Of a DNA stretch of 64,000 nucleotides, positions 13,557-51,578 are shown one piece after another. Both the position numbers and the translations under genes were made by a program. The stretch's first letter is position 1. Each line of letters begins with the position of its first letter. This DNA comes from Octopus vulgaris. Lineage: Eukaryota. The DNA lies in the NCBI GenBank assembly GCA_951406725.2, contig OX597815.1, forward strand, positions 191,704,001 to 191,768,000. The letters run 5' to 3'. Below the pieces are notes generated by a model. The model made no database searches, was not told the DNA's origin, and saw only the letters and a program-made list of their open reading frames with translations.

Positions 13557-13604
13557 GTCACTGATGAAGGCATATATAAAATATCCCAGAAACAGCTGTA
13601 AGAC
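13557..13604 (+). ncRNA. Minimal type I hammerhead ribozyme motif in a short PLE remnant
   Basis: GTCA-CTGATGA-AGG...CC-A-GAAA-CAGCTG-TA-AGAC. Canonical core, palindromic stem III, GUA site. Confidence 0.75.
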
Positions 13605-13661
13605 CATCTCTTTATAAACGTTCTGAAATCTTTCACAGCCTTGGATTTTTATCTCATTCTG

Positions 13662-13709
<48 letters not shown>

Positions 13710-14119
13710 CTGGCACTTGCCGTCAGTAATTACTCAAGGTAGGTAGTTGGTGACCTTTTAATGTAGTAAAACACACAAAAAATAAGCGAAACAGAGGCTC
13801 GTGACTGAGTTGAAGGCAGATTTATAGAAAACGTAAAGAAAACGGTGTTGTAGGAGTGTATGCAGCATGTATACTACATCATTACTGTGCGAAGCTTTAA
13901 TACAAAAAAGAAAGTATTTTGCATTTTATGCATAGTAATAAGAGTAACCTTCATAATTTTATTGTATTTGGTGCATATTTCGCCGTAAAAGAAAAATGTT
14001 ACTATCGATCTATTTTATTCAAGGTAGGCACTGCCTTCTTGCTACCTAGGTGACATGTCTCTGATATATATATATATATATATATACTTTATTTAAAGCA
14101 GCAGAAAATTCAACAAAAT

Positions 14120-14157
14120 CTGTTACTCTGAGTTTCTCGTTGCCGTTCATCAGACGT
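14120..14157 (-). ncRNA. Minimal hammerhead motif
   Basis: Reverse complement CGT-CTGATGA-ACGGCAACGA-GAAA-CTCAGAG-TA-ACAG. Confidence 0.65.
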
Positions 14158-14409
14158 GTTTTTGCTAGAATGGAACCGATATATCAATTCAATCCAGACT
14201 CTTACAAACGCTACACCTTTTAAAACATGGACTTGTTTGATTGGCCCTTTAGAAATAACGGTCAATCTTCGAGCGATAAACAAAAAAATGAGCTCAAAAA
14301 TATATATGTATGTATATATATATATATATATATACATATATATAAAAATTATAAAGATTATAAAATTCGAGGAAAAAACCTTACATTGAATAAAATACAT
14401 ATATATATG

Positions 14410-14615
14410 TCTGGTGTGTGTTTCATTCGCCGTGCTGAACCACTGAAATCTACACGCTTGTTTTCTTTCTCTATTTATTTCCTCTTTTTCCTTTCTGTCG
14501 AAGAGCGTAGGCTCGAAACATAAGACTTTTAAATTTCCCCGAGCGTCAAACTAATACACTTATTTGTTGTTCCTACACTTGTCTTCATCTTTTGATTTTC
14601 AATGAATTTGAACTG
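14410..14615 (+). mobile_element. Short PLE 3'-end family with variant hammerhead at 14491-14526
   Basis: CTTT-CTGTCGA-A-GAGC GTAG GCTC-GAAA-CA-TA-AGAC plus a shared tail. Relatives at 18285, 30300, 41835, 46245 and 51500. Confidence 0.65.
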
Positions 14616-14659
14616 TGTGTGTGTGTATGTATATATATATGTGTGTGTGTGTCTGTGTA

Positions 14660-15057
14660 TCTTTATATATAAAAGAGAGGTTGTGTGTCTGTCTCCTACG
14701 ATTTAGATTCCTAACTACTCCCACATTTTGCGGTGCAGTTTAACCAAAACCGGGTATCTTATAGTCGTGATTCATATCGAGTCCTTCTGGGTATTAGCGC
14801 GCGTCTACGATGAGTCTACGATTTAAAAAAAAAATTACCATAATTTTTTTTCCATTTTAATGCATTATTTCGCTATTATATAAGTGAAGTAACTCTCTAA
14901 AAATGTCTACGATGAGTCAACGATTTAAAAAAAAATTTACCATCATTTTTTTCCTTTTTTAATGCATTTTTTTGCTATTTTTTGGCTATAACTCTCTAAA
15001 AATGCTTATATAGTTATTTCCCTTACAAATCCGAGCAACGCCGGGCGATAATGCTAG
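14660..15057 (+). mobile_element. Non-autonomous Helitron
   Basis: TC...hairpin...CTAG|T, with two internal subrepeat units. Confidence 0.9.
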
Positions 15058-15261
15058 TATATGTATATATATAAACAAAAATACGTATGGGGAATATATC
15101 TTTAATTGTAGAATTCACTTCACAACAGAAGCAATTGTCGGCTTTTTATCAACGTATTTAAATATAGATAATATAATTGATATTAATATTTCCGAAAATA
15201 TATGTTAACACAACGTTTTCAAGGTGATCCAAAATTAGTTCACTTTGAATATAATTAATTT

Positions 15262-15722
15262 TGGATCGCCTGGAAAACGTTGTTAGTGGCCAGATAAGAT
15301 GTTCGGCTTCACTTGACTGTTCCTTATGCCAATCAGTAACAACCTTAGCTTTGGGAATTGGATGCATTATCATCCTGAAATATTGCGCGCCCCCCCCCCC
15401 CCCGGAAGCACTTCCGCAACCATAGGATGAATTTGATCAGACAAAATGCTTAAATAGTCTTGACTGTTAATTCTTCCATGAAGGGGAGCTATAGGGCCGG
15501 CGGATTTCCAAAATATAGCCCCTCCCCTCCCAGATCATCACAGATCCTCCTTCATGTTTAACAGTTGGAAGAAGGCAGTCTGGGTCAAATGCTTCTTTTG
15601 GCTGTCTCCACGCGTATACTCGGCCGGTCGTCGGAAATAAGGTAAAGGATGACTCGTCTGAGAAAACATTCTTCCACTGCTCTAGGGACCAATTCTGTAG
15701 GTTTTTACTCCACCCTAAACGC
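15262..15722 (-). pseudogene. Tc1-family transposase fragment (frameshifted)
   Basis: WSLEQWKNVFSDESSFTLF...TVKHEGGSVMIW and FQDDNA..AKVVTDWHKEQSSEAEHLIWP motifs. Confidence 0.9.
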
Positions 15723-15724
15723 CT

Positions 15725-15976
15725 AATAGCGGCAGATGAAATACCTATTTCTTTATTACCCACAAGGGGCTAAACACAGAAGGGACAAACATGGACAGAC
15801 ATAGGTATTAAGTCGATTACATCGACCCCAGTGCGTAACTGGTACTTAATTTATCGACTCCGAAAGGATGAAAGGCAAAGTCGACCTCGGCGGAATTTGA
15901 ACTCAGAACGAAGCGGCAGACGAAATACCGGTAAGCATTTCGCCCGGCGTGCTAACGATTCTGCCAGCTCGCCGCC
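15725..15976 (-). mobile_element. SINE A, full copy plus start of a second unit
   Basis: Head GGCGGCGAGCTGGCAGAATCG; the tail is followed by GGTATTTCATCTGCCG. Confidence 0.9.
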
Positions 15977-15984
15977 TTTTTAAA

Positions 15985-16190
15985 ACTCCCAAATCATAAC
16001 AGGACTGTTTCTCAGAGCTTTATGTTTCCGTTCGTCGGACAATTGTGACGCTGGGAACATAAGGCTCTGAGTAACCGTTCTGTGATGATTTTACAGCTTT
16101 AAACTGAAAGCATATTACTCTACCTTTCGTATTCGAGTACTATCTTCTCCATCTTGTTTGCACTTATGTGCTCACCTGTATATATAAACG
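15985..16190. mobile_element. Inverted pair of PLE ends; hammerhead motif on the minus strand at 15994-16042
   Basis: Reverse complement TTGT-CCGACGA-A-CGGA...TCTG-A-GAAA-CAGTCCTG-TT-ATGA. A degenerate inverted copy lies at 16043-16092. Confidence 0.6.
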
Positions 16191-16220
16191 GCGTTGCAAA
16201 CAAGGAAATAGAGCTAAAAA

Positions 16221-16592
16221 AGCTAAGCGTAGTTGTGTAGTGAGTAGCTTGCTTACCAACCACATGGTTCTGGGTTCAGTCCCACTGTGTGGCACTTTGG
16301 GTAAGTGTCTGCTACTATAGCTTCGGGCCAAACAAAGCCTTGTGAGTGGATTTGGTAGACGGAAACTGAAAGAAGCCTGTCGTGTGTGTGTATTCATTCG
16401 TCCCCCCCACCAGCGCTTGACAACCGATGTTGGTGTGTTTATGTCCCCGTAACTTAGCGGTTCGGCAAAAAGAAACCGATAGAATGAGTAAGTACTAGGC
16501 TTACAAAAACCAAATCCAGGGGTCGATTTGTGCGACTAAACGGGGTGCTCCAGCACGGCCGCTGTCAAATGACTGAAATAAATAAAAGAATA
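16221..16592 (+). mobile_element. SINE B
   Basis: Family match. Confidence 0.9.
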
Positions 16593-16794
16593 TATTTTTC
16601 TTAATAGTGACACTATGTCCGGGAGCTCTGCATTTACACTTTTCCTATATCAGTACGTGTGTTTGTGTCTGTGTATATATATATATATATATGTGTGAGT
16701 GCGTGTATACATTGTGTGTGTGTACGTGATGAATGTGAGCGTGCTAGGAATAATTAATTGCTTTTATACATGTATGGTATGTACACATACGCCT

Positions 16795-17390
16795 GTCTGT
16801 CTGTCTGTCTATATGTCTATCTATCTGTCTATCTGTCTGTCTGTCTGTCTGTCTGTGTGTCTATCTGTGTATCTGTCTGTCTATCTGTCTGTGTATCTGT
16901 CTGTGTCTGTCTGTCTATCTGTCTGTGTGTCTGTCTCTGTCTGTGTCTGTCTGTCTGTGTGCCTGTCCATATGTCTGTCTATGTGCCTGTCTATCTATGT
17001 GCCTGTCTATCTATGTGCCTGTCTATCTATGTGCCTGTCTATCTATGTGCCTGTCTATCTATGTGCCTGTCTATCTATGTGCCTGTCTATCTATGTATCT
17101 GTCTATCTATCTATGTGTCTGTCTATCTATCTATGTGTCTGTCTATCTATCTATGTGTCTGTCTATCTATCTATGTGTCTGTCTATCTATCTATGTGTCT
17201 GTCTATCTATCTATCTATGTGTCTGTCTATCTATCTATCTATGTGTCTGTCTATCTATCTATCTATGTGTCTGTCTGTCTATCTATCTATGTGTCTGTCT
17301 ATCTATCTATGTGTCTGTCTATCTATCTATGTGTCTGTCTATCTATCTATCTATCTATGTGTCTGTCTATCTATCTATGTGTCTATATAT
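16795..17390. repeat. (TCTG)/(TCTA) derived 16-24 bp minisatellite
   Basis: CTATCTATGTGCCTGT-type units. Confidence 0.95.
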
Positions 17391-18225
17391 GAGTGTGTCA
17401 AGATAGGTCTATGTGCGTATGTATGTATGTATGCATGTGTGTGCAAACGTCTGCGTGAAAGTGGTTGCCTCGGTGTGTGTTAGACGGATCGCGGAAGGTT
17501 AGCAAGTTACTAGGCGGTAGGCGGGGAAACAAGGACAAAACAACAGCAATTAGCGTAGAGAGAGAGAGAGGGTGGGGAGAAGGTGGATAATAAAAAGCAA
17601 ATCGAAAGAGAAAAGGTAAAAGCGATATAGAGGGGGTGGGTGAGGGAAAGATAAATAGTGGTAATATGAAACAGAAAGAAGAGACACATATAAGAGACAC
17701 ATACAAGCATATACAAAGACATACACATACACACACACACATATGAATGTATATTAAAACACTCACGTAGACTGTGAATGAAAAGAGAGAGAGAGAGAGA
17801 TAGGTAGAGGAAAGAAAGAGAGAGAGAGGGACGGGTTGGGGAAGAGAGAGAGGGAGAGAGGGGTGACTGTCAAACACAAATAGAAAATAAGAGGGAGAAA
17901 GTGAGAGGAAAGTGTTAGTGAGTATAAAAATAGAAAAAAAATGATTGCGAGGAGAGAAAGGGAGTGAGGGCGAGAATGAAAGGAGGTGGGGAAGGGAGGG
18001 AGAGAGTAATGTTGGCGGAAAATATGGAGTGAAGAGGTTTTTTTTTTATAAGTTATTAAAGGTTAAAAAGAGTGGGGGTAGAGAGAGGAGGAGAAAGAGA
18101 ATGGGGGGAAATAGAGGGTGAGAGGGAGAGAGCGAAAGAGAAATTACGTACATAAAGAACGTTTAATATGGCTTCCCTTACTCTCATTCCCTCTCCTCCT
18201 CTCTTTCTAAATAAGTGTGAAAATA

Positions 18226-18284
<59 letters not shown>

Positions 18285-18287
<3 letters not shown>

Positions 18288-18480
18288 TGGAGAATTCACT
18301 AAAAAAAAAGCAAAAGACGAAGACAGGTGGTGTAGAAAACAAACAGATGTATTAGTATAACGCTCGGGAATTGAAAAAAAGTCTTTTACGTTTCGAGCCT
18401 ACGCTCTTCTACAGAAAGGAACAGAGAAAGAAACAAGGAGAGAAAAAAAATGTGTGTAGTGGCTATCGATCTATCATGGC
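18285..18480 (-). mobile_element. Short PLE 3'-end family with hammerhead motif at 18383-18418
   Basis: Reverse complement CTTT-CTGTAGA-A-GAGCGTAGGCTC-GAAA-CG-TA-AAAG, flanked by (TA)n. Confidence 0.7.
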
Positions 18481-18494
18481 TATATATATATATA

Positions 18495-18997
18495 TTCTTT
18501 TCTTTGTTATTTCACTGCAGGCATGCTGGAGCACCGCCTTTAGTCGAGCAAATCGACCTCAGGACTTATTCTTTGTAAGCCTTGTACTTATTCTATCGAA
18601 CAGCTAAGTGACGGGGACGTAAACACATCAACATCGGTTGCCAAGCGATGGTGTTGGTGGTAGTGGGGAAACACATATTCACACACGCATACACACACAC
18701 GCATACACACACACGTATACACACATACGCATACACACACACGCATACACACACACGCATACACACACACGCATACACACACACGCATACACACACACGC
18801 ATACACACACACACACGCACCCCCCCACATATATATATGAGGGGCTTCTTTCAATTATCCGTTTATCAAATCCACTCACAAGGCTTTGGTCGGCCCGAGG
18901 CTATAGTAGGAGACATTTACCCAAGGTGCCATGCAGTAGGACTGAACCCAGAACCATGTGGTTGTTAAGCTAGCTACTTAAAACACAACCACTCCTC
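18495..18997 (-). mobile_element. SINE B with expanded internal repeat
   Basis: Family match. Confidence 0.85.
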
Positions 18998-19425
18998 TGT
19001 ATATGTGTGTGTGTGCGCGCGCACGCATCTGTGCGTATGTGCGCGTACATGCATACATACACATTCATATGCATACGCACACATATGTGTGTTAATGTAT
19101 ATATACATAGGTACATATCTAAATAAGTATACACATACGCATGCATACGCGCCCGCACACTCCCCCCCACCCGCCACACGTTTAGAAAGGAAGGTGTGTG
19201 TGTGTGTGAGAGAGAGAGAGAGAACGGTTGAAAGAGTGGTGGCAGTTTGTGTTGGAGGGTAAGAGAAAAGAATTAGCTGATAGTGGAGAAAAGGTCGACA
19301 GTGATAGAGAATATATATATATATATATATATATGTATAAGGGTGAAAAGGAACACACGAGTTGATATATATGAAAAAACAAGTAAAAAATAGAAAATGC
19401 TAAAATAATTTTATAGTGAACATTT

Positions 19426-19463
19426 CAGTACCGGTTTCGGTCATTTTGAGACCTTTTCAACTG
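19426..19463 (-). ncRNA. Minimal hammerhead ribozyme, U3-A8 variant (left arm)
   Basis: Reverse complement of 21546-21583. Confidence 0.75.
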
Positions 19464-20140
19464 TAACGATTAAATAATTAAATTTAGAAAAATTAGAAGA
19501 AAAGTTTTTTTAAAAAAATATTTCTATAGTAGTGTTCAGATTTAAGTGGCATTCTGCCTTTCTCTGACTCCCTTGTTTGCACTTGTGTGTTCGAGGTAGT
19601 TGTGAGTTCTTGGTAGGGTAGTAGAGGGAAGGCTGGTGAGGAAAGGGGGTTGGAGAATCTGGGAGTGCCCTGATGGTCGTATTTTGAATGGTCAGTGGCG
19701 GCTGGCAGTCTCAGTTCAATTCAGGATTGTTTATAGAATTAGCGTAGGTGTTATACTAAAAAACATTAGTGACAAACTTAAGGGGTAGGGGGTGAGAAGA
19801 AGAAGAAGAAGAAGAAGAAGGAGAAGGAGAAGATGATGGTGATGGTGGTGATGATTATGACGACGATGATGATGATAACGATGATGATGAAGAAGAAGAA
19901 GAAGAAGAAGGAGGAGAAGGAGAAGATGGTGGTGATGATGGTGGTGATGATGATGACGCCGATGATGATGATAACGATGATGATGAAGAAGAAGAAGAAG
20001 AAGAAGAAAAAAACAGAGAAGGGAGAATATGAATGGGTGTAAATATAGCTATGAAGGGGCTGATTAGTAATGGATTCTATGGAGTGTAGTATTTGTGTGT
20101 GTATATATATTTTTTTCTTTTATTCTAAAGTTGAGGTATA

Positions 20141-20400
20141 TTAATTGTTTGTCGTAGACCCGTTAAGAAGTGGCTTGTATTTTGTAATAAAGAGATTTTC
20201 TTTACTTATTCTTTGTCTGGAGGTTGTATCGTCCCTAAATTGGTAGAGGGGGAAAATTCTGAAGTTTGGTGTTTTTTTGTTGGCGCAAGTATCTATGTGT
20301 TGGCTAAAAGCTATTTTTCTGTTTTGGGGAATTTTTATCTGGGATCTGTGCAGGGCCATTCGTTTACGCAAACCATTTTTGTTTGGCCTATGTACTGCTC
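20141..20400 (-). pseudogene. Penelope GIY-YIG endonuclease C-terminal fragment (left arm)
   Basis: EQYIGQTK/NGLRKRMALHRSQI...SQHIDTC...FRIFPLYQF...RISKENLFITKYKPLLN: YIG motif plus conserved R, H, E and N, with one homopolymer frameshift. Confidence 0.85.
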
Positions 20401-20549
20401 TTGAGCAGTACATAGGCCAAACATAGGCGCAAGTATCTATGTGTTGGCTAAAAGCTATTTTTCTGTTTTGGGGAATTTTTATCTGGGATCTGTGCGAGGG
20501 CCATTCGTTTACGCAAACCATTTTTTTGTTTGGCCTATGTACTGCTCTT

Positions 20550-20808
20550 GAGCAGTACATAGGCCAAACAAAAATGGTTTGCGTAAACGAATGGCCCTGC
20601 ACAGATCCCAGATAAAAATTCCCAAAACAGAAAAATAGCTTTTAGCCAACACATAGATACTTGCGCCAACAAAAAAACACCAAACTTCAGAATTTTCCCC
20701 CTCTACCAATTTAGGGACGATACAACCTCCAGACAAAGAATAAGTAAAGAAAATCTCTTTATTACAAAATACAAGCCACTTCTTAACGGGTCTACGACAA
20801 ACAATTAA
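20550..20808 (+). pseudogene. Penelope GIY-YIG fragment (right arm)
   Basis: Inverted copy of 20141-20400 with homopolymer indels. Confidence 0.85.
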
Positions 20809-21545
20809 TATACCTCAACTTTAGAATAAAAGAAAAAAATATATATACACACACAAATACTACACTCCATAGAATCCATTACTAATCAGCCCCTTCATAG
20901 CTATATTTACACCCATTCATATTCTCCCTTCTCTGTTTTTTTCTTCTTCTTCTTCTTCTTCATCATCATCGTTATCATCATCATCGGCGTCATCATCATC
21001 ACCACCATCATCACCACCATCTTCTCCTTCTCCTCCTTCTTCTTCTTCTTCTTCTTCTTCTTCTTCTTCTTCTTCTTCTTCTTCTTCTTCTTCATCATCA
21101 TCGTTATCATCATCATCGTCGTCATAATCATCACCACCATCACCATCATCTTCTCCTTCTCCTTCTTCTTCTTCTTCTTCTTCTTCTTCTTCTTCTTCTT
21201 CTTCTTCTTCTTCTCCACCCCCTACCCCTTAAGTTTGTCACTAATGTTTTTTAGTATAACACCTACGCTAATTCTATAAACAATCCTGAATTGAACTGAG
21301 ACTGCCAGCCGCCACTGACCATTCAAAATACGACCATCAGGGCACTCCCAGATTCTCCAACCCCTTTCCTCACCAGCCTTCCCTCTACTACCCTACCAAG
21401 AACTCACAACTACCTCGAACACACAAGTGCAAACAAGGGAGTCAGAGAAAGGCAGAATGCCACTTAAATCTGAACACTACTATAGAAATATTTTTTTAAA
21501 AAAACTTTTCTTCTAATTTTTCTAAATTTAATTATTTAATCGTTA

Positions 21546-21583
21546 CAGTTGAAAAGGTCTCAAAATGACCGAAACCGGTACTG
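21546..21583 (+). ncRNA. Minimal hammerhead ribozyme, U3-A8 variant (right arm)
   Basis: CAG-TTGAAAA-GGTC TCAAAAT GACC-GAAA-CCGG-TA-CTG. All three stems pair. Confidence 0.75.
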
Positions 21584-21632
21584 AAATGTTCACTATAAAA
21601 TTATTTTAGCATTTTCTATTTTTTACTTGTTT

Positions 21633-21671
<39 letters not shown>

Positions 21672-21879
21672 AAATAAGGAAATGGAGAAATACATTTTAA
21701 TCAATAATCAACTACCAGATAATACCCAATCACATAATTTATTAAACCACTACATAAGGAACATTAAGGTCAAACATAATAATATAGAACAAAACAATGT
21801 ACATCAATGAATAATGAGATACAATAAGTACAGTATGTATAAGTGAATATAAATAAATACAAGTATAAATACAAACTAC

Positions 21880-22006
21880 ATCTTACAGCTGTTTCAGCCA
21901 TGCAGATATGAGTGCCTCATTATGCTCATATTAGCCATGTGTGATAGGTTAATATGTAGTTATAAATGAGACACTTACAAAAATATCCCAAGGCCTCTTC
22001 AGAGAT
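21880..22006 (-). ncRNA. Hammerhead with canonical core and ~90 nt stem II insertion, in PLE remnant ~21670-22105
   Basis: Reverse complement ATCT-CTGAAGA-GGCC...GGCT-GAAA-CAGCTG-TA-AGAT. Confidence 0.75.
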
Positions 22007-22329
22007 TATGAAGAACAAACTAAATTAAATATGAAAATCAGAGGAGGTATTGGATACATGTTATCCCATGGTGGGTTGCACTCACAACCCCTATCTCAAT
22101 TTGTAATATATATATATATTCATATTTATATGTATATGAGAAAGTGGTATAAACCAGAGTAAAGGAGTGTGAGAGAGAAAGAGGAAATATGTAAGGGAAG
22201 GAGGGAGAGTGAAAGCGAAGGAGAGAGAGTAATTAGGAGAGAGTAATAAAAATGTCACTGCGTGTGTGTATGGGTGCGTATATGTGTGTCTACGGATATC
22301 CGTGTAGTACGAGGCGTGATGTTATAGAC

Positions 22330-23252: not shown

Positions 23253-23390
23253 CAGGGCCGGATTAAGACCATAGAGGTCCTAAAAACTTAAAAGATTTTG
23301 GTACCCCCCCCCATATATATATGGTACCTCTCTAGCAGTATATTGGATATATGTTATCCCATGGAGGGTTGAATTTACAACCCCTATCTC

Positions 23391-23438
<48 letters not shown>

Positions 23439-23794: not shown

Positions 23795-23829
23795 CATACA
23801 CACACACAGATACATACATACATACAAGG

Positions 23830-24883: not shown

Positions 24884-25405
24884 TTAGTTAGTTAGTTAGT
24901 TAGTTAATTTGGCTCAAAAGCAAATAGCAAGGCCATGTAGGGGGACATGGAGTTAAGTACAGGGTGGTGTTCATGTAAAGAGTTCAGGCCACTTGAGGTC
25001 CAGGGAGGCTTTGAACAAAGCGGTCGTCGGCATCTTCACCATCTCGTCTGGCAGCTTGTTCCACGGATCCGCAACCCGGACGGAGAAAGCTCCTCTCCTT
25101 CGATTGAGATGAAATCGTCGCAGGTAGAGCTTTTCGGAATGACCCCGCAGCCGACGCTCCGGAGCAGGAGTGAAGAACAGCTCTTTCGAGAGGTTACACT
25201 TCCCGCTTATGATGTTGTGGGCGAGAATGAGATCACCACGGCGGCGGCGTTTTTCAAGAGAATAAAGGTCGAGCGTCCTCAGCCTTTCTTCGTAGGACAA
25301 ATTTTTGAGACCATGAACCATGCGGGTAGCCAGCCTCTGGACTCTTTCGAGATGCTGTATGTCTTTGAGGAGATAAGGAGAAGAGGCTTGAATCCCATAC
25401 TCAAT
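24884..25405 (-). mobile_element. 5'-truncated CR1-clade LINE (ORF2 C-terminus, 3' UTR, (TAAC)n tail)
   Basis: Uninterrupted frame IEYGIQASSPYLLKDIQHLERVQRLATRMVHGLKNLSYEERLRTLDLYSLEKRRRRGDLI...FSVRVADPWNKLP. Confidence 0.92.
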
Positions 25406-26770: not shown

Positions 26771-26804
26771 GATCTCTGATCTACGATATGATCTGAACTG
26801 ATCT

Positions 26805-26963
26805 GGGTTAGGGTGTTGGGTTAGAATTAGGATTTTGGGTTAAGATATTGTTAAGATCTGGGTTAGGGTTTTGGGTTAGGATTTTGGCTAGGTTTTAGAG
26901 TGATGGCTAGGTTTAGGGTTAGAGTTAGGGTTTAGAGCTAGGATTAGGCTTAGAGTTAGGGTT
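26805..26963 (+). repeat. Degenerate interstitial (TTAGGG)n-like tract
   Basis: GGGTTAGGG, GTTAGAGTTAGGGTTTAG and similar units. Confidence 0.75.
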
Positions 26964-27107
26964 GGACTGCTGGCTAAAGTGTAAATGGTCAGATAGACCG
27001 CACGTTAAAAATGGCACCTTCAAAGCCTGTGTTAAAGTTTATGATGTCATCATTTGATATTTAATTTAACCACGTAGAAGTTTTCAGTTTATCATATATA
27101 GATAGAT

Positions 27108-27803: not shown

Positions 27804-28080
27804 GTACCCACGCTTCACCTCACCTCTCATAGTTCTCCCCTTTGTCAATCACACCTTCAGCAACCTCTTCCCCTTCCGGTCATTTAATCATGCGGTAATT
27901 GTCTAATCGAGACAGACTTGTTCTTTTCTGAAGAGAGAGAGAGAGAGAGTGTGTGAGAGAGAGAGAGAGGTAAAAGACTTTTATTTTCCTGAGCGTAAAC
28001 TTAATACACTTTGCTTTTTTTTCCTTGTCTTCGTGCTTTTTAGGTATTAGACACACCATATATATATACATACGTACGTA

Positions 28081-29059: not shown

Positions 29060-29350
29060 TGTATGTACTGTCCTGTTTTTGTTACCATTTTTACCCCTCC
29101 GCAAAAAGATCTCAAATTTTATTTAATTTGCTTTTCGCGGGAAGGAAAGCTTCTATTGAAGATGCGTATCGCCTTCACCTTCGAAACGCAGAGTAGATGA
29201 AACCATGGCGACTGAAGAAGGGGAATTTTCCTTGTGTTATTTGTCCTGTACTCTATTTTTTCGTTGTTTAAGAAAAATGTCCAGTTCCTTGGTTTTGTGT
29301 CTGTTTTCATTTCTCATTGTGTTCGAGGTTTTTTTGGTGTCCTGTACCCA
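29060..29350 (+). mobile_element. PLE-like short remnant with hammerhead half-motifs (related copy 40200-40370 minus)
   Basis: CCTTCGAAAC...CTGAAGAAGGGGAA and a shared tail ...GGTGTCCTGTAC. Confidence 0.5.
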
Positions 29351-30299: not shown

Positions 30300-30475
30300 T
30301 AATCTAAACAATAAAGCACAAAAAACAACAACGCGAGGACGTGGAACAAATATAGTATTATTGGACGCTCAGGAAAGAAGGAGGGTTTAACGTTTCGAGC
30401 GGAGCTCTTCGTCGGAAACATAGGAGAAGGGAAGACAGATGAAAAAAAGTCGCCAACGGTACACACGAGGTCACA
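30300..30475 (-). mobile_element. PLE end with hammerhead motif at 30385-30419
   Basis: Reverse complement GTTT-CCGACGA-A-GAGC TCC GCTC-GAAA-CG-TT-AAAC, between (TA)n tracts. Confidence 0.75.
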
Positions 30476-30492: not shown

Positions 30493-30975
30493 ACACCTTC
30501 CACCTCAGAAGCCTCCGACGCATACTCGGCATCTCCAGGCAAGACAAAGTAACCAATACTGACGTTCTGTCTCGTGCTGGCCTCTCCACCATGCTCACCT
30601 TGCTAAGACACCGTCGACTGCGCTGGCTTGGCCACATTCGCCGTTTGGAGGATGGTCGGATCCCAAAGGATGTCCTCTTCGGAGTGCTTGTCGCAGGGCG
30701 GAGAAGCATTGGTCGCCAGAAGCTGAGGTACAGGGACGTGTGCAGGAGGGATATGCAGGCACTTGGCATCAACACCAATTCCAGTGAGGATCTCGCAGCC
30801 CACCGAACCAGCAGAAAAGAAATGACAGCCAACAGACCGGATTTAACGTATAGGTGCAAACGAGACTGCCAATCCCACAACGGTCTCTACAGCCACAGGA
30901 GGCGTTGCAAAAACAGAATAGACAACTCAACGGACGGATGGCATCATCCATGATCAGCCATGACCGACGGAGGCC

Positions 30976-31388: not shown

Positions 31389-31848
31389 GGGTTGGACAAA
31401 ATAATGGAAACACCTTAAAATTTCAAACAAATATATTTTAATATAGGGTAGGACCGCTGTTGGCAGTAATTACAGCTTGAATTCTACGAGGTATGGACTC
31501 GTACAAAGATTGAAATGTTTCCAAAGGAATTTTTGTCCATTCTTCAACTAAAACAGTCTCCAGGTCTTCTAGTGATTACAGTGGAGAATATCGACTCCTT
31601 ACTTGTTTTTCTAAAATGCACCATAATTTTTCTATACTATTGAGATCTGGGGACTGTGGTGGCCAGATAAGATGTTCAACTTCACCACAATATTCCTCGT
31701 GCCATTCAGTAACAACTTTAGCTGTGTGAATTGGTGCATTATCACCCTGAAAGATTGGGAATTGGTGCATTATCATCCGGAAACACTTTCGCAACCATAG
31801 GATAAATTTGGTCAGATAAAATGCTTAAATAGTCTTGACTATTAATTC
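31386..31848 (-). mobile_element. Tc1-like transposon 3' end with TIR; DD36E spacing
   Basis: FQGDNAPIHTAKVVTEWHEEYCGEVEHLIWPPQSPDLNSIEKLW; TIR GGGGTTGGACAAAATAATGGAAACACC. Confidence 0.9.
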
Positions 31849-31867
31849 GCTTTCCTGTTCTCTTCAA

Positions 31868-31898
31868 CCCTGAAGAAAGACTCAATCCGAAACGTTGG
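31868..31898 (+). ncRNA. Minimal hammerhead motif
   Basis: CC-CTGAAGA-AAGA CTCAA TCC-GAAA-CG-TT-GG. Confidence 0.6.
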
Positions 31899-32064
31899 AT
31901 ACTTTACTGCTTTTTCTAAACAATAAAAGTCCTGCTGACGTTGACCACCGTTATTCTCCTACACCACCGCAACACAGAAATGTTTTAATATATGGTAGAA
32001 GTAACAGTGATTCAAGGCACGAGAGTTTCGTGGGCTAGCACTTATTAGATAAATACAAATATAT

Positions 32065-40201: not shown

Positions 40202-40439
40202 TACAGGACACCACAAATAAACGTAGAACACAACGAGGAACGAAAACCTAAAATCAAATAAGGAAAGGGATTTTTTTAACAACGTAAAAACAGAGTACAG
40301 GACAAACAATACAAGGAATATTCCCCTTCATCAGCTGCCCCTGGTTGACTCAATGCGTGTTTCGAAGGTAACATATAGATGTAGGTATGTACATATATGT
40401 ATGTATGCATATGTTTTAATTGTTAAATTGTTATATATA

Positions 40440-41639: not shown

Positions 41640-41756
41640 CACCTGATGACGTGCCGGTACTTAGCTGCAGTTGGATCATATTTAGTTATGTTATCATTTA
41701 TATGGAGAAACTCAGCAACTAAAAGTTGTTACCTCTGCACAGAAACAATTGTTGTG
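41640..41756 (+). ncRNA. Hammerhead with canonical core and long stem II
   Basis: CAC-CTGATGA-C-GTGC...GCAC-A-GAAA-CAATTG-TT-GTG. Confidence 0.7.
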
Positions 41757-41834: not shown

Positions 41835-42280
41835 TCAAATTTACAGAAAACAAAAGGCGAAGACAGATGAGAGAATAACAAGCAGACGTATTAGTTTGAT
41901 GCTCGGGAAGAATGGAAAAGTCTTTGACGTTTCGTACATACGCTCTTCGACGGAATGGGCCTAAGGCGGCGAGCTGGCAGAAACGTCAGCGCGCCGGGCG
42001 AAATGCTTAGCGGTTGTTCGTGTCTTTACGTTCTGAGTTCAAATTCCGCCTAGGTCGACTTTGCCTTTCATCCTTTCAGGTTCGATAAATTGAGTACCAG
42101 TCACGCACTAGGGTCGATGTAATCGACTTAATCTCTTTGTCTGTCCTTGTTTGTCCTCTTTATGTTTAGCCCCTTGTGGCAATAAAGAAATAAGAAAGGG
42201 TTGAGAGGAGGAAAAAAATAGAGAGGGAACGCGGGGAAAAACACAGAGAAAAATGTGTAGGGATTAACGGTCCAACATGT
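41835..42280 (-). mobile_element. PLE end (hammerhead motif 41922-41957) interrupted by SINE A (41964-42193, +)
   Basis: Reverse complement CCGTCGA-AGAGCGTATGTAC-GAAA-CG-TC-AAAG; the element resumes after the SINE. Confidence 0.7.
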
Positions 42281-42399
42281 ATGTATCTATTAATGGCTGG
42301 CTGAACGGATGAATAGATTGGTGGATGTGTGCATATATGTACACGTAGGCACATACACACAGCGACAAGCGATTGTGCTAAGAAAGGACCACAAAACAA

Positions 42400-43202: not shown

Positions 43203-43239
<37 letters not shown>

Positions 43240-43912
43240 CGATAGGCTTCTTTCAGTTTCCGTCTACCAAATCCACTCACAAGGCTTTTGTCGGCCCGAG
43301 GCTATAGTAGAAGACAGTTTACCAAGGTGCCACGCAGTGGGACTGAAACCGGAACCGTGTGGTTGGTAAGCAAGCTACTTACCACACAGCCACTCCTAAA
43401 GTTAGTCATGATGGCGGCCATTCGATTTCGAACAAAACCGTCGCTTGATTATTATCGTAACCCTGTAGCGTTCACATTAATCTGTCAAATGTCCTGTTTA
43501 TTTTACTCATATCTTTTGAACTACTCTTGCAGTATCTTGTAGCTTTGATATTTTGATGAGGCGACTGTTAATTTTTAGAATGATTTCGTAAGGTTGATGT
43601 GAGATGCCAAATCAGGCCAGTTTGTGACATAAAACAGGTGGAATATTTGGGCCTGATACGGCCTGTTTAAATGTTAAATGAACATTTACGGATGTGGCTT
43701 TTAAGTCCTGTGAAGGAACTGCACTCTTTTGGTTTTCCGGCTTCGACCGGCCAAATTATGTGACACTCTATTACTTGTTTCAGTCGAGCAGATCGACCCC
43801 GGGACTTATTCCTTGTAAGCCTAGTACTTTTCTATCGGTTTCCTTTGCCGAACCGCTAAGTTACAGGGACGTAAACACACCAGCATCGGTTATCAAGCGA
43901 TGATAGGGGGAC

Positions 43913-44005
<93 letters not shown>

Positions 44006-44160
44006 GACGAGCTTCTTTCAGTTTCCGTCTACCAAATCCACTCACAAGGCTTTGGTCGGCTCGAGGCTATAATAGAAGACACTTGCCCAAGGTGCCACAC
44101 AGTGGGACTGAACCCAGAACCATGTGGTTGGTAAGCAAGCTACTTACCACCCAGCCACTG
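42400..44160 (-). mobile_element. Three SINE B copies (42400-42801, 42960-43397, 43765-44160)
   Basis: Family matches, all in the same orientation. Confidence 0.9.
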
Positions 44161-44164
44161 ATGT

Positions 44165-44710
44165 CTGTGCGTGAAGCTTTTTAATGTGAAGAAAGGCCTT
44201 GCATAGGGCTAATCACGGTATCGACCAAACCATGAGATGCTGTTAAAGACCGCTGGCCAGAGTGCGCTTCCAGTTGTCTTGATTGTGTCATTCTTTTCCA
44301 CCTTGACCTAAATTGCTTGACCAAATCGTCTTCCCATCGTCATAGTCACCAGACTTTTAAAAAAAAAATAAACGCCACGAAAAAGTAAGCAGGTCTCCGT
44401 AGGAACTATAGTACGACAGGTCACATATTCATTCTAACACAGCTCATAGAATAAGCGAACAAACACAAGCTTCTTCTATGTAACACTTTTGTCGATTATG
44501 AGACATCCATAGATAGCGTAAAGATGAATGCAGTGTTGAAATCTCTGGAAATGCAAGGTGAAGTGCAATACATCAAATTGCTCAGAACTCTGAGCTCTAG
44601 ATGCTCAGTAGATATAGCTCTGCTATCACCATCCGTGAGTGTTCCAATTTAGAAAGGCGTCATGCAAGGAGATACCATCTCTCCAAAGCTCTTTACTGCA
44701 TGTCTAGACA
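44165..44710. pseudogene. RTE-clade LINE fragments in opposite orientations
   Basis: Plus strand 44390-44710: AGLRRNYSTTGHIF...FVDYETSIDSV...KGVMQGDTISPKLFTACL (RT). Minus strand 44165-44340: RWEDDLVKQF. Confidence 0.8.
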
Positions 44711-44754
44711 GGGCTAATACCACTCCAAACAACAGAGGGTCCTATTTTGTTCTA

Positions 44755-45893
44755 AGGCGGTGAGCTGGCAGAATTGTTAGCACGTCGGGCGAAATGCGTA
44801 GCTGTATTTCGTCTGCCGTTACGTTCTGAGTTCAAATTCCGCCGAGGTCGACTTTGCCTTTCATCCTTTCGGGGTCGATAAATTAAGTACCAGTTACGCG
44901 CTGGGGTCGATGTAATCGACCTAATCCGTTTGTCTGTCCTTGTTTGTCCACTCTATGATCAGCCCCTTGTGGGTAGTAAAGAAAAAGGTGAGGTGCTATA
45001 CATCAAATTGCTCATAACTCTGAGCTCTAGATGCTCAGTAGATATAGCTCTGCTATCACCACCCGTGAGTGTTCCAATTTAGAAAGGCGTCAAGCAAGGA
45101 GATACCATCTCTCCAAAGCTCTTTACCGCATGTCTAGACAGGGCTAATACCACTCTAAACAACCGAGGGTCCTATTTTGTTCTAAGGCGGTGAGCTGGCA
45201 GAATTGTTAGCACGCTGGACGAAAAGCTTAGCGGTATTTCGTCTGCCGTTACGTTCTGAGTTCAAATTCAGCCGAGGTCGACTTTGCCTTTCATCCTATC
45301 GGGGTCGATAAATTAAGTACCAGTTACGCACTGGGGTCGATATAATCGACTTAATCCGTTTGTCTGTCCTTGTTTGTCCCCTCTGTTTAGCCCCTTGTGG
45401 GCAATAAAGAAATAATTGTTAGCACGCTGGACGAAAAGCTTAGCGGTATTTCGTCTGCCGTTACGTTCTGAGTTCAAGTTCCGGCGAGGTCGACTTTGCC
45501 TTTCATCCTTTCGGGGTCGATTAAATAAGTACCAGTTACGCACTGGGGTCGATAAAATCGACTTAATCCCTTTGTCTGTCCTTGTTTGTCCTCTCTGTGT
45601 TTAGTCCCTTGTGGGTAGTAAAGAAATAGGTATTTCGTCTACCGTTACGTTCTGAGTTCAAATTCCGCCGAGGTCGACTTTACCTTTCATCCTTTCGGAG
45701 TCGATTAAATAAGTACCAGTTACGCACTGGGGTCGATATAATCGACTTAATCCGTTTGTCTGTCCTTGTTTGTTCTCTCTGTGTTTAGCCTCTTGTGGGT
45801 AGTAAAGAAATAGGTATTTCGTCTGCCGTTACGTTCTGAGTTCAAATTCCGTCTGTGTTTAGCCCCTTGTGGGCAGTAAAGAAATAGGTATTT
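44755..45893 (+). mobile_element. SINE A array, including a ~430 bp tandem duplication of RT fragment plus SINE (44557-44986 / 44987-45413)
   Basis: Repeated ATACATCAAATTGCTC...TCTAAGGCGGTGAGCTGGC, followed by further SINE units. Confidence 0.9.
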
Positions 45894-46244
45894 TCACAAA
45901 AAGAAGAGCTAGTTTACATTTCTGAATGCAAGCACAATCTCAGGTGTTACATCAGAGTGTTCCTTCTCCCTGAGAAATGTTTAAGTAAGACTAAGGGTCC
46001 CTCACTTTTAGCTGCTGGATGATTGTTGACTCTGCTGTGTTCATCCGCCATTTGGCAGGTTTTATTATTCGTTCTGCAGGGTGTCCAACGAGTGTCACCT
46101 TTTCTACCATGTCGGCTTGGAAGGCTTGCCAGTTTAGTCGCCGACGGCCTGACCATGCAACAGGTTGTACTGGATCATATGTGACCAGTGGTACAAAAAG
46201 TGACATAACGTATTTATATACACACCTGCGTACATATATTCATG

Positions 46245-46440
46245 TCGCCATGATATATTGGTAGCCACTACACACATTTTTTTCTGTCCTTGTTTTTTTC
46301 TGTGTCCCTTTATGTAGAAGAGCGTAGGCTCGAAACGTAAAAGACTTTTTCAATTCCTGAGCGTTATACTAATACATCTATTTATTTTCTACACCACCTG
46401 TCTTCGTCTTTTGTCTTTTTCGCGAACCCTCCCCCTATTC
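46245..46440 (+). mobile_element. PLE end family with hammerhead motif at 46308-46343
   Basis: CTTT-ATGTAGA-A-GAGCGTAGGCTC-GAAA-CG-TA-AAAG; reverse complement of the 18285-18480 element. Confidence 0.7.
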
Positions 46441-46864
46441 ATGCATACATATGTATGTGATTATCCAGTTTTATTTCAAGATTTCTTGACAATAGAGAAA
46501 GAGCCAGTTTCTAACATAGAACCAAGGCTACTTCCTTGGAATTTCAACAACATCAACAGGGCATTTATGTATGTATGTGTGTATACGTGCAGATTTGTAT
46601 GTTTTGTTTTATGCATGTATTCTCATGCATATAGCTGCATGTCTAGACATGCTCATATATACTTAATTTATGAGCATATCATATAAAGCTAGACACGCTC
46701 ATATAAAGCTTAATTTCGTAAGATTGGTATTTAGGCAGTGTGTTATGTTATGTATGTATGTATGTATGTATGTATGTATGTATGTATGTATGTATGTATG
46801 TATGTATGTATGTATGTATGTATGTATGTATGTATGTATGTATGTATGTACGTATGTATTTTAT

Positions 46865-47238
46865 TCTTTTATTCTTTAACTCGTTTCAGTCATTTGACTG
46901 CGGCCATGCTGGAGCTCCGCCTTCAGTCAAGCAAATAGACCCCAGTTCTTATTCTTTGTGAGCCTAGTACTTATTCTATCGTTCTCTTTTGCTGAACCGC
47001 TAATCTACTGGTACGTAAACACACCAGTATCGGTTGTCAAGCGATGTTAGTGGAACAAATACACACACACGCACATATACGACTGGCTTCTTTCAGTTTC
47101 CGTCTACCGAATCCACTCACAAGGTTTGGTTGCGCCGAGGCTATAGTAGAAGGCACTTACCCAAGGTTCCACGCAGTGGGACTGAACCCGGGAACCATGT
47201 GGTTGGTAAGCAAGCTACTTACCACACAGCTACTTCTC
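46865..47238 (-). mobile_element. SINE B
   Basis: Family match. Confidence 0.9.
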
Positions 47239-47254
47239 CATCTATGTATGTATG

Positions 47255-47625
47255 ACAGTGACCTTTTTGTGTGCACAGTCTGTGACAGACAATGCCTGTC
47301 TTTTGCTGGCCTCAAATCTCATCGGCGAACGCCTGGAAAACGAACCTCCACAAACTATTCTGTCTATATGTCTGTGCACACCTCTGAATGCAGTGTATGC
47401 CATAAGGTTTGCAAATCCAACGGAGGTCCCAAAAGATATTTTAAGATCCACAAAGATCAGAACTTATCTGCAGCTCTTGGTGGTCCAAATCGGAGGAGCA
47501 ATCTATGTAGGTGTCTTTTCAAAACATTGTCTGGTTTAAAAAGCCACATAAGTTGTCATGATGGTTCTAACGTGTAGGTACAGGCGGTGGTCAAACTCTG
47601 CATAAAGAGTAGACAACTATCATGT
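47255..47625 (+). mobile_element. LINE (probably RTE) 3' end encoding three C2H2-like fingers
   Basis: CTVCDRQCLSFAGLKSH, CSVCHKVCKSNGGPKRYFKIH, CRCLFKTLSGLKSHISCH*, then a short UTR and (TATG)n. Confidence 0.65.
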
Positions 47626-47694
47626 ATGTAATGTGTGTGTGTATGTATATATGTATGTGTGTATGTGTGTGTGTTTGTATGTATGTATGTATGT

Positions 47695-47920
47695 AGAAGA
47701 GTGTAATTCGGCAGGAGGACTTAAACGACATGCAAAGGTACATGAAGCCCAGTTACAACTACAACCGGCTATTACCGGTAAAGGTTTTAGTTGCCAATTC
47801 TGTACAAGACATTGTAGATCTTTAGCTGGGGTAAAAATTCACATTCGGTCACAGCACCAATAACAGTTAAGCTTCGTGCAATGGCCATACTCGATAACGA
47901 GGGGGCAGCCATCATGTATG
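47695..47920 (+). mobile_element. Second RTE-like 3' end with C2H2 fingers
   Basis: ECNSAGGLKRHAKVH...CQFCTRHCRSLAGVKIHIRSQH; 3' hairpin CTCGATAACGAG then ATCATGTATGTA. Confidence 0.65.
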
Positions 47921-48109
47921 TATATATGTAATGGGTTTTATTTATGTTAAAGGAGTTCAATCCATTTGCTACCAAATCAACAAGAGTTACCGGTGTTTGT
48001 GAATATGTGGTTGACTCGGTGTGTTGACTTAGTTCTGTTGGTTGAGCTTTCGTTATAATAAAAACAATTTTACATTAATCTAAAGGTTACTCCTAATTTT
48101 TGTACAGCA

Positions 48110-48152
48110 CAGTCCGATGATTGTTTATCTGACCGAAACTCCGAAGTCACAG
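48110..48152 (+). ncRNA. Degenerate hammerhead motif
   Basis: AGT-CCGATGA-TTGTTTATCTGACC-GAAA-CTCCGAAG-TC-ACAG. Confidence 0.5.
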
Positions 48153-48735
48153 AAAATATTCTTCTTCTTAAACGTGTGTGTGTGTGTGTGATGGTGTGAT
48201 TGTGTTTGCCCTCCACCACCACTTGATAACCAATCTTGGTTTGTTACCGTCCCTGTAAGTTAGTTGTTCGACAGAAGAGTCCGATAGAATAAGTATCGGG
48301 CTTCAAACAAAAGTAAGTACTGGTGTGAATTCGTTCGACTAAAAAGACATTACAAGGCAGTGCTAGCAAGGCTGCAGCCCAGTGAATGAAACGAGTAAAA
48401 GATAAAAGAAACATCCATCATCAGCTGTTAACTAAGCTAAATGTGGTTTCCATATCATAGTGTTTAGTTAGGCTGATGAAAGGCTGCCTTATGTAGTCCC
48501 TCTGTTTCGGTTATTGAGTATTGGTGTTTTGGCTATGAACTACACACGTACACACACACACACACATGCTTGTTTATAACGCGTGTGTGTATTTTTGTAC
48601 GCATATATGTATATATACATATATTTATGTATGTGTATGTTTGTACATATGATAGTACGTATGTATGTATGTATCCACCTATCTACCTGTCTGTATATTT
48701 ACCAGTCTGTGTGTAAGCATGTACGTATGTATGTC

Positions 48736-48805
<70 letters not shown>

Positions 48806-48924
48806 ATTTATCTATCTATCATTTATCTATCTATCATTTATCTATCTATCTATCTATCTATCTACCTGTCAGTGTATATATCTGCCAGTCTGTCTGTGTA
48901 TCTATCTATCTGCCAGTCTGTCTG

Positions 48925-48968
<44 letters not shown>

Positions 48969-49004
48969 CCTGTCAGTCTGTCTGTGTATATATCTATCTG
49001 CCTG

Positions 49005-49038
<34 letters not shown>

Positions 49039-49490
49039 ATAATCGTTCACTCTCTTTCCCTCTCATCCCTTTTAAGCTGCCTCTCTCTCTATGTATGTGT
49101 GGGTGTAAAAGAGTGAGAGAGTGTATGTGTGTGTATGCATGAGACTTGTGAAATGTGTGGGGATTTGCATACACGCATACACTCTCTCTCCCACGCACAC
49201 ATACACACGCACACACACACACACATATGTATATAGAATAAATGATTGAATAACTATATTGAGATGTAGGAAGATAAAGGAAGGCAACGATGTGCTGGGA
49301 AGAAGATGATGGCAGTAGCAGAGTGTCGGCAGCGGCGGAGGGAAGAGAGAGATGATGTGTAATAGCTGAAAAGATTATAGTATGTAGCTAAGAGTGTTAA
49401 CGATACGGTTTGAAGAGCAGAAAAGTAACGCCGTTAAATGTAAGACTTGATGTGTGTGTGTGTGTGTGTGTGCATGGGCCTGTGTTCGTA

Positions 49491-49532
<42 letters not shown>

Positions 49533-49609
49533 ATGTATGTATATATCTATGCATTATGTATGTGTATGTATACATGTATACAGAATAAATACATGCATTG
49601 ATATGAGTA

Positions 49610-49669
<60 letters not shown>

Positions 49670-49722
49670 TAAATGCATCCATATATATATATATATTAAT
49701 ACACACTCACACACACACACAC

Positions 49723-49765
<43 letters not shown>

Positions 49766-50384
49766 CACACGCAAACGTGATAATATGCATTTACAAGTAT
49801 ATATTACATATTGACATTAACTATATACATTTAATATATATCTACATACATTTAATAAATGTGCATGTATACACACGTAAACATATATATATATATATAT
49901 AGGCAAATTTAGCAAAAATATATATGTATGAATCTAGATACATACACACTCAAACACACCTATGTATTTACACGCGAACATGTGTGTGTGTGTGTGTATA
50001 TATATATAAATATATATTCAAATGCATGAATTTAAATATTATATACACATGCATACAAACACAAACGTACATGTACTAGATATAGTATATATATATATAC
50101 ATTATATACACACACACACACACATGCATATATATATGCAATATGTGTGCGTGTGTATGCATGTGTATACACACACACACACTCAAGCACACGCACAAAT
50201 GCTTATGTATACCCACCCATACAAACACACAACTGCAGACAAACTTGTACATTATATACACACACACACACACACACACAAAAGAAAAAAATACGACATG
50301 TACAGAAATGTAGTCGGATGCAGATGTGTGTTTAGACTAGTATAGTATTTGTTTTAAGAGATAACAGGAATTGATAAGATAAAG

Positions 50385-50429
<45 letters not shown>

Positions 50430-50511
50430 TGTGGCGGTGAGAAGGCGAAAGAGAGAGAAGTGGTGAGAGGGCAAGAGAAAGAAAGGAGAGAGAGAGGTGG
50501 TGAGAGGGAGG

Positions 50512-50544
<33 letters not shown>

Positions 50545-51544
50545 GGTTAACACAACACCAATAACGACGTACAGATACGCCGATACAGCGCAATACAAGA
50601 CTCATACACACACACACATACACGCACACATGCACTCTCTCGCTTTCACTCTCTCTCTCTTTCTCTCTCTCTCTCACACGCGCGCACGCCCTGACACACG
50701 CACACACACTCAGTGGCACTCAGAACATAGCAAAGCATAACAAGATACAATAAAAGTATGGCAAAACGCATGGCTTGCAATGAAAGATGTATGAAAGGTA
50801 ACCATAAAATTGTTAGACGTAAAATGTACTGGCATATAATACATGCGTGCGTATGTATGTATGTATGTGTGTGTGTATGTGTGTGTATGTATGTTTGTGT
50901 GTATGTATGTTTGTGTGTATGTATGTGTGTGTGTGTATGTGTGTGTATGTATGTATGTGTGTGTATGTGTATGTGTGTATGTATGTATGTGTGTGTATGT
51001 ATGTATGTATGTATGTATGTATGTATGTGTGTGTGTGTGTATGTTTATATGTATGTGTGTGTGTGTGTGTGTATGTGTTTGTGTGTGTGTATGTATGGAT
51101 GTGGGCTGTAAATGAATACATGTAAAAGGAGATATAAGTGTTTGTATTATGTGTGTGGATATGTGTATATGTAAATATATATGTCTATGTATTTATAACA
51201 GAATATGTGTATATAATTAGTTGAGCATTTACGTTTGTGCGTATGTACGCATACATATTCGATATATATATATATATATAATATATGTGTGTGTGTATGT
51301 GTGCGCGCGTGCTTACATGTATATATATATATATATATGTCTATATATGTTGTGTGTGTGTGTGTGTATGCATACACATATACGCACATACACCCCTTCC
51401 TCCATGCTACTATGCCCTTCCTCCCTTCCTAACACCCCCCATAAAACCGCATTCCCACCTGGCTCCTAACCCATCGCCAATCTTTTTTCTCTTCCTCTCA
51501 TTCTCAGTGCATTTTTCCTTCATTTTTCCTTCTTCTCTATCTTG

Positions 51545-51578
51545 CTTATGATGAAGAACTAGCATCCGAAACGTCAAG
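51545..51578 (+). ncRNA. Degenerate hammerhead motif in a PLE end
   Basis: CTT-ATGATGA-AGAACTAGCATCC-GAAA-CG-TC-AAG. Confidence 0.55.

Follow-up and report, generated by a model that had tools for sequence, protein, structure and literature searches.

Why does a short stretch of octopus DNA hold so many sequences that resemble minimal hammerhead ribozymes, and what left them there? The stretch, hereafter the window, comprises 64,000 nt of the Octopus vulgaris genome (assembly GCA_951406725.2, contig OX597815.1, forward-strand positions 191,704,001 to 191,768,000; the coordinates below count from its first letter). It is microsatellite-rich animal DNA of 32–45% GC, with repeats resembling short interspersed elements (SINEs), fragments of long interspersed elements (LINEs) and a Tc1/mariner remnant. 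An earlier examination of the letters alone (the sequence-only reading) had listed 15 hammerhead coordinates and proposed a large, multi-family, retrozyme-like system that targets microsatellites. We found hammerhead-like text at all 15 coordinates; however, they represent only 14 insertions, and the majority of the copies are damaged. Our preferred explanation, to which we give a probability of roughly 80%, is that a truncated Penelope-like element (PLE) carries one pair of motifs at its 3′ end, that six more belong to one very abundant group of ~200-bp repeats (family A), and that a shared PLE copying process likely left all of them behind as relics.

An inverted Penelope-like element with a hammerhead in each arm

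The sequence-only reading had attributed the motifs to PLEs. This link is direct for one insertion, which combines a GIY-YIG endonuclease remnant, an inverted arm and a tail, whereas for the rest of the 14 insertions we only infer it. The insertion (19335..21644; arm complementarity and self-BLAST) is an inverted, 5′-truncated PLE whose two arms stand head to head between (TA)n blocks, both ends running into (TA)n. Sites 19426 and 21546, listed separately, fall on opposite arms of this single inverted duplication (arms 99.7% identical by self-BLAST); segments 19365–19648 and 21361–21644 are complementary at 100%, and more arm pairs follow inward. A 30-nt tail (19335..19364, minus strand) extends the minus arm only and lacks a counterpart on the plus arm. 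The insertion thus unites an inverted 5′-truncated copy, a one-sided 30-nt tail and a (TA)n site; one-sided tails of 30–40 bp have been described for PLEs (PMC8557442; PMC11167929), and Octopus Naiad and Hydra families with a (TA)n preference have been listed (PMC8557442).

What is left of the coding sequence is the C-terminal part of the endonuclease, ending in a stop codon and identified through its protein relatives in the minus arm (20144..20377, −). The identical end recurs in the plus arm (20626..20805, +, with the stop at 20806–20808; self-BLAST and tblastn), where the frame is shifted further upstream. This endonuclease end has 245 protein relatives at E ≤ 0.001, the best of which is 58% identical (E 2e-18), and it aligns with the C-terminus of proteins of 738–773 amino acids. 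Pfam GIY-YIG was found in eight of the nine relatives scanned, three of which also contain RVT_1, and the CX2-5CxxC linker that marks Neptune and Nematis PLEs (PMC8557442) was present in 22 of the 27 relatives of at least 300 amino acids. The insertion itself has lost this linker by truncation; its reverse transcriptase is gone as well and seen only in the relatives, while the endonuclease end with its stop codon is retained. The 78-amino-acid endonuclease piece was itself unrecognised by Pfam, and a word-index protein search with a 60-amino-acid piece gave no match.

Each arm carries a minimal type I hammerhead, at 19426..19463 (−; strict and relaxed descriptors, defined below) and at 21543..21586 (+; relaxed score and fold). 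In the plus arm, the core UUGAAAA (21549–21555) shows the U3-A8 variant, stem II is GGUC/GACC, the palindrome is ACCGGU, and cleavage is predicted after 21580. The core lies 741 nt 3′ of the stop codon and the cut site 56 nt ahead of the element end, which places the hammerhead near the end of a ~830-nt 3′ tract. For two copies of the 21546 motif, the predicted fold is a double hammerhead joined via ACCGGU. We examined contigs of this family in four runs with three organism labels (1744, 1450, 276 and 90 contigs) and at neither 21549 nor 21554 did any second letter reach 4%; the U3-A8 core is fixed across the PLE family. As in the family A pile-ups below, summed contig depth is not a copy number. 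The contig loose ends behind the PLE family are TA-rich. Such loose ends also hinted at a subfamily with A-U at 10.1–11.1, which we did not count as covariation because the two halves come from different contigs. Within the 3′ tract, (GAA)n/(GAT)n runs (19794–20021 and 20936–21215) differ in length between arms that are otherwise nearly identical. Elsewhere in the window, a near-perfect inverted repeat with ~110-nt arms (6976–7195) adjoins (TA)n and is possibly another two-armed insertion with no recognised hammerhead.

A ~200-bp repeat group with an altered core

The sequence-only reading had counted several unrelated families, which turned out to be an overcount: two sites are the insertion just described, and six of the 15 (14491, 18383, 30385, 41922, 46308 and 51545) form one ~200-bp repeat group. 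Four of these six (14491, 18383, 41922 and 46308) are 76–92% alike by self-BLAST and carry U at core position 6. The best copy, at 18383..18418 (−; strict and relaxed descriptors), has every stem intact. Palindrome and stem I are decayed at 14491..14526 (+), as are the stems at 41922..41957 (−), both identified by self-BLAST and alignment, and the copy at 46308..46343 (+; self-BLAST and contig pile-up), our pile-up reference, has a private change at position 3. The remaining two share a downstream tail and have A at position 6: the relative at 30385..30419 (−; strict descriptor and alignment) has the core CCGACGA (U4C) and intact stems, with G-C instead of C-G as the outer stem I pair, and a distant, decayed relative lies at 51544..51579 (+; relaxed score and shared tail). 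Since these relatives retain A6, U6 is likely the derived state. Sequence likeness further revealed two 3′ fragments that lack the core and whose ends are approximate, one of family A (27975..28050, +) and one family A-like (13437..13530, −), the latter adjoining (TA)n.

The altered core is common to the whole family. With the copy at 46245–46435 as reference and a required likeness of at least 80% to a U6 copy, the pile-up comprised 20,594, 20,934, 4,379 and 504 contigs in four runs (organism A as the label of three, organism E as that of the fourth). At position 3, C makes up 98–99.8% of the depth, so the A of the 46308 copy is private. At position 6, no letter other than U reached 5% in any of the four runs, and two loose-end consensus rows that extend to this position likewise read U. 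The core of family A is CUGUNGA, and this fixed A6U change in the commonest family had gone unnoticed in the sequence-only reading. Position N7 takes all four letters (C 12–17%, G 7–35%, U 12–50%), and H17 is A or U (U 2–50%, G not listed; runs labelled organism A and E). Across the 36 hammerhead positions, CpG sites and the reference-private change aside, variation of at least 5% occurs only at N7, H17 and the outer stem I pair, the other changes within the motif being CpG decay. The contig loose ends behind family A are (TA)n.

An extra base after A9 and a G10.1-C11.1 pair are present in six of six group copies. When these were aligned, 88.9% of the cells were paired and three of nine pairs had changed on both sides, versus 11–43% paired cells in slid controls. 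A covariance model of the six copies gave 31868 as its best outside match (E 0.0035) and retrieved no additional copy. For 18383 and 30385, the predicted dimer fold differs from a double hammerhead.

Is the U6 core still working? A possible but clearly less favoured alternative for family A is a working core variant, in which U6 would be tolerated and cutting would proceed slowly as a trans-dimer between abundant transcripts. The narrow set of variable positions speaks for it, as does a post-hoc chance estimate of 0.005 for N7 and H17 both varying, and a natural A6C variant does cut, at less than 0.1 per min (PMC3088659). However, the counted contigs were limited to those at least 80% like a U6 copy, N7 variation is partly explicable as CpG decay (C to U), and mutations of the CUGA turn led to low activity that second mutations did not rescue (PMC9901934). 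Nor does insertion in vitro need cutting: the hammerhead of an anole PLE cuts, yet catalytic mutants insert normally in vitro (PMC11167929), which would let a crippled family spread. Family A has spread widely with U6; it likely cuts slowly or not at all, and its insertion probably does not depend on cutting. Lunse et al. (2017) reportedly dealt with dimer cleavage of PLE hammerheads, which may bear on A6U.

A probable common origin, rival explanations and further sites

Taken together, the motifs are likely leftover tail ends of PLEs and of their short parasites. In line with published PLE biochemistry, a protein with reverse transcriptase and GIY-YIG domains would nick AT-rich DNA; reverse transcription would begin near the RNA 3′ end and often halt early, with inversions, and mainly the hammerhead-bearing last few hundred bases would be inserted, often in (TA)n. 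Family A may be a short non-coding passenger that uses a PLE protein in trans, or else the short end that such a PLE habitually leaves; the gene for this protein was not found. In the source elements, hammerheads may have cleaved slowly as dimers via a palindromic stem III, trimming tandem or read-through transcripts. As the sequence-only reading had observed, palindromes that permit such a dimer (ACGU, ACCGGU and ACAGCUGU) do occur among the motifs. Within one transcript of the window a dimer is unlikely, because the nearest same-strand partner of the same family is never less than 5 kb away and the two PLE arms lie on different strands. Type I order with paired stems I and II is intact in 18383, 30385, 19426/21546 and 21880 and broken in most others. 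The core CUGANGA with GAAA is present in 21880, 31868, 13557, 14120 and 41640, the PLE arms have the U3-A8 variant, and family A proper has U at position 6. G10.1 pairs with C in the PLE arms and with U in 21880, in both cases without an extra base after A9. Monomer folding energies of the short motifs are mostly no better than those of shuffles, which is expected for dimer-type motifs and was not used as support. With broken stems or cores, most copies in the window are probably inactive.

Several observations weigh against this origin. Of the 14 insertions, a single one is connected with a protein gene; tblastn with relatives of at least 140 amino acids found no further PLE coding piece in the window, nor did an autonomous partner of family A come to light. 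In the covariation count, shuffles reached the observed values in 10–89 of 500 cases, the six copies being related and the structure derived from them. The association with TA repeats noted in the sequence-only reading is modest in this TA-saturated window: (TA)6 or longer lies within 200 nt of nine of the 15 sites, versus 4.8 for random positions (P 0.022), but for (TA)4 or longer the figures are 10 of 15 versus 7.6 (P 0.17), so that in-window enrichment is weak. Finally, variation at N7 and H17 with an otherwise invariant core in family A looks more like continued selection than a dead relic.

No new multi-family system is needed to account for these motifs. Minimal hammerheads are dispersed by the thousand in animal genomes, with ~2,000 in Schistosoma mansoni, 4,000 in coelacanth and 9,000 in Xenopus (PMC4209133), and a coral holds more than 6,000 type I motifs (PMC7229834). 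In O. vulgaris, PLEs of 190 families make up 6.83% of the genome according to a survey whose main text does not mention hammerheads; by our own arithmetic this amounts to ~4.4 kb of PLE per 64 kb, room for 10–20 short ends.

The label retrozyme-like likewise found no support, as no motif lies in a head-to-tail array. The corresponding explanation, that the elements are non-LTR retrozymes which excise and circularise between tandem hammerheads, could draw on unit lengths of 135–440 bp, which fit the 150–450 bp of metazoan retrozymes (PMC7229834), and on the proposal that retrozymes derive from PLEs (bioRxiv 10.64898/2026.07.22.740005). We nevertheless regard it as very unlikely: no motif was part of a tandem array among 150 of 171 TRF rows or in self-BLAST, same-strand family A copies are at least 5 kb apart, the ~46,000 family A contigs contain only isolated joints that go back, and the hammerheads are minimal, not canonical.

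The density of motifs was compared with shuffled sequence in two ways. A strict descriptor of type I motifs (≤30 nt allowed for the stem II region, core mismatches counted) found no compact motif with a perfect core in the window, two matches with one core mismatch (18383 and 30385) versus shuffled means of 0.05–0.65, and nine with two mismatches versus 1.8 (maximum 6 in 20 shuffles); a descriptor requiring a hairpin stem III recovered none of the 15 listed sites. A relaxed score, which was drawn up after the motifs had been seen and is hence biased toward them, gave nine matches at ≥16 versus a mean of 0.47 in 30 local dinucleotide shuffles (maximum 2), eight of the nine being sites of the sequence-only reading. 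The claimed excess is thus borne out for a top tier ~19-fold above shuffles, but seven of the 15 sites fall within the shuffled range or below the 40 best scores: 13557, 14491, 14120, 31868 and 51545 score within reach of shuffles (1.5–9.5 chance matches per window), and 41922 and 48110 are not among the top 40. The population is therefore real, yet some single copies, taken by themselves, are indistinguishable from chance. Rfam returned no family at gathering score in the window, and by E-value the best 150 of 496 matches were microsatellite-driven microRNA matches. Chance matching in DNA rich in repeats and in A and T is the least likely explanation, for although those seven sites and the want of a perfect compact motif agree with it, the top tier and, for eight sites, the family-level data and the endonuclease link do not, and chance is possible only for 15994 and 48110 and conceivable for 13557, 14120 and 41640.

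Two further sites are credible hammerheads. The first (21880..22006, −; relaxed score and six-order scan) is of type I, with a perfect core CUGAAGA (22002), 4-bp stems I and II, a loop II of ~100 nt and the palindrome ACAGCUGU; its predicted monomer fold is not a hammerhead. It sits in a 437-bp element (21668–22105) between TA blocks, whose 5′ end recurs at ~23340–23395. The second (31866..31900, +) is minimal, with a perfect core and decayed stems, and was recovered by the family A covariance model at E 0.0035. It follows a Tc1/mariner DDE_3 remnant (31579–31821, −; E 7e-13) and lies at least 354 nt from TA.

Three sites are plausible decayed hammerheads: 13557..13604 (+; score 14.9, 1.5 chance matches per window), with a perfect core, the palindrome ACAGCUGU and broken stems; 14120..14157 (−; score 13.5, 4.3 chance matches), with a perfect core, a near-palindromic stem III and broken stems; and 41640..41756 (+; score 16.2, 0.43 chance matches), with a long loop II, an 8-nt palindrome and a stem II without its closing pair. 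Sites 21880–22006 (−) and 13557–13604 (+) each show the palindrome ACAGCUGU followed by AAGA, with complementary 11-nt stretches in loops II, a hint that both descend from an ancestor whose stem II was long; MAFFT left the two unaligned. Two sites hold hammerhead-like text (relaxed score and fold): 15994..16045 (−) falls within a long imperfect hairpin (15985–16095) with a predicted −42.6 kcal/mol (z −6.2) that would pair up its cleavage-site strand, and 48110..48152 (+) has a weak stem II and a score below the top 40.

When all six hammerhead block orders were scanned across the window, with 40 shuffles as control, the top match was a candidate type-SGC (non-circularly permuted) hammerhead at 29163..29223 (+), with stems of 5/4/5 bp, a perfect core at 29212 and a predicted cut after 29168. 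Its score was reached by none of the 40 shuffles in any order, and the site, with its S-G-C block order, three stems and intact core, is absent from the sequence-only list. The candidate lies in a ~300-bp repeat. The same scan found a second copy of this family at ~40323..40372 (−), which has lost the cleavage-site (S) block at its 5′ end and begins with the tail of the element in inverted orientation; by eye, a helix pairing at four of five positions could there bridge stems I and II at their far sides, a feature of published SGC forms. With the candidate, the type-SGC hammerheads of Eckert et al. (2023, PMC10085705) share the block order and the short linker between stems I and II. In a metagenome pattern search for the family, none of 28 matches paired as SGC, and we found no publication since 2022 that links Naiad, hammerheads and permutation. 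Judging from sequence, we put at about even the odds that an animal retroelement here carries a genuine permuted hammerhead of type SGC.

Two further hits were absent from the sequence-only list. A perfect CUGACGA core at 57855–57900 (+), beyond the listed range, lies within a 6-bp hairpin, with no GAAA block matched to it, and 44164–44207 (+) reaches a relaxed score of 17.2 through long stems and a palindrome despite two core mismatches. As for other repeats, LINE reverse-transcriptase-like ends were seen by eye at 24974–25405 (−), 30510–30950 (+) and 63487–63762 (+), with no Pfam match above cutoff, and tandem arrays of SINE-like repeats (periods 184, 212 and 430) together with a degenerate interstitial (TTAGGG)-like tract occupy 1–583, 44555–45851 and 26800–26965.

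Relation to known systems

In an animal genome rich in PLEs, a swarm of hammerheads comes as no surprise and in itself changes little. Given that PLE insertion in vitro can do without cutting (PMC11167929), one may ask why these elements retain their hammerheads at all. Family A makes this question testable: it is very abundant and has fixed a core change that should slow cutting, yet it has preserved the remaining core. Two outcomes are conceivable: either elements can forgo cutting in nature, or position A6 tolerates more than mutagenesis would have us believe. Both would alter the descriptors with which ribozymes are counted, as a CUGA requirement would miss family A. We consider it conceivable, albeit with less confidence than the relic reading, that the commonest hammerhead family here is a naturally selected CUGU-core ribozyme, common to at least two species labels, which may still cut as a dimer or may now serve as a fold recognised by the PLE protein; if true, nature would here offer a test of the purpose that PLE hammerheads serve.

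The minimal hammerheads of PLEs, their cleavage as dimers, the U3-A8 variant and the (TA)n preference are already published; U3-A8 covariation, for example, has been described in S. mansoni PLEs (PMC4209133). In the literature searched, which did not include supplement file 1 of PMC4209133, we found neither a family-wide A6U core nor, more broadly, a survey of cephalopod hammerheads. A motif look-up in the supplements of PMC8557442 and PMC13282606, files that seem to be metadata and not libraries, gave no match.

Compared with metazoan non-LTR retrozymes (PMC7229834; bioRxiv 10.64898/2026.07.22.740005), the elements are likewise short, lack coding sequence, contain a type I hammerhead and are probably moved by PLEs; retrozymes, however, form head-to-tail arrays with canonical hammerheads, whereas the copies in the window are single and minimal. 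With the endonuclease-bearing (EN+) PLEs of the Neptune/Nematis type (Craig et al. 2021, PMC8557442), the insertion at 19335–21644 shares the C-terminal GIY-YIG domain, the inverted 5′-truncated copy, the one-sided tail and insertion in (TA)n. It differs in that only the last ~80 codons remain, so that its clade is read from relatives and not from a tree, and the short families lack a coding part. A third comparison is with the minimal type I hammerheads in the pseudo-LTRs of metazoan PLEs (Cervera and De la Pena 2014, PMC4209133). Common to both are the type I order, a short stem I, the extra base after A9, G10.1-C11.1, a palindromic stem III, a U-rich flank, the U3-A8 variant, mostly single dispersed copies, which number thousands in a genome, and the existence of several consensus families. 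Family A fits the published metazoan minimal-hammerhead consensus at all positions save position 6, and it is this family-wide U6, together with the ~100-nt loops II of 21880 and 41640, that sets the motifs of the window apart from the hammerheads described there.

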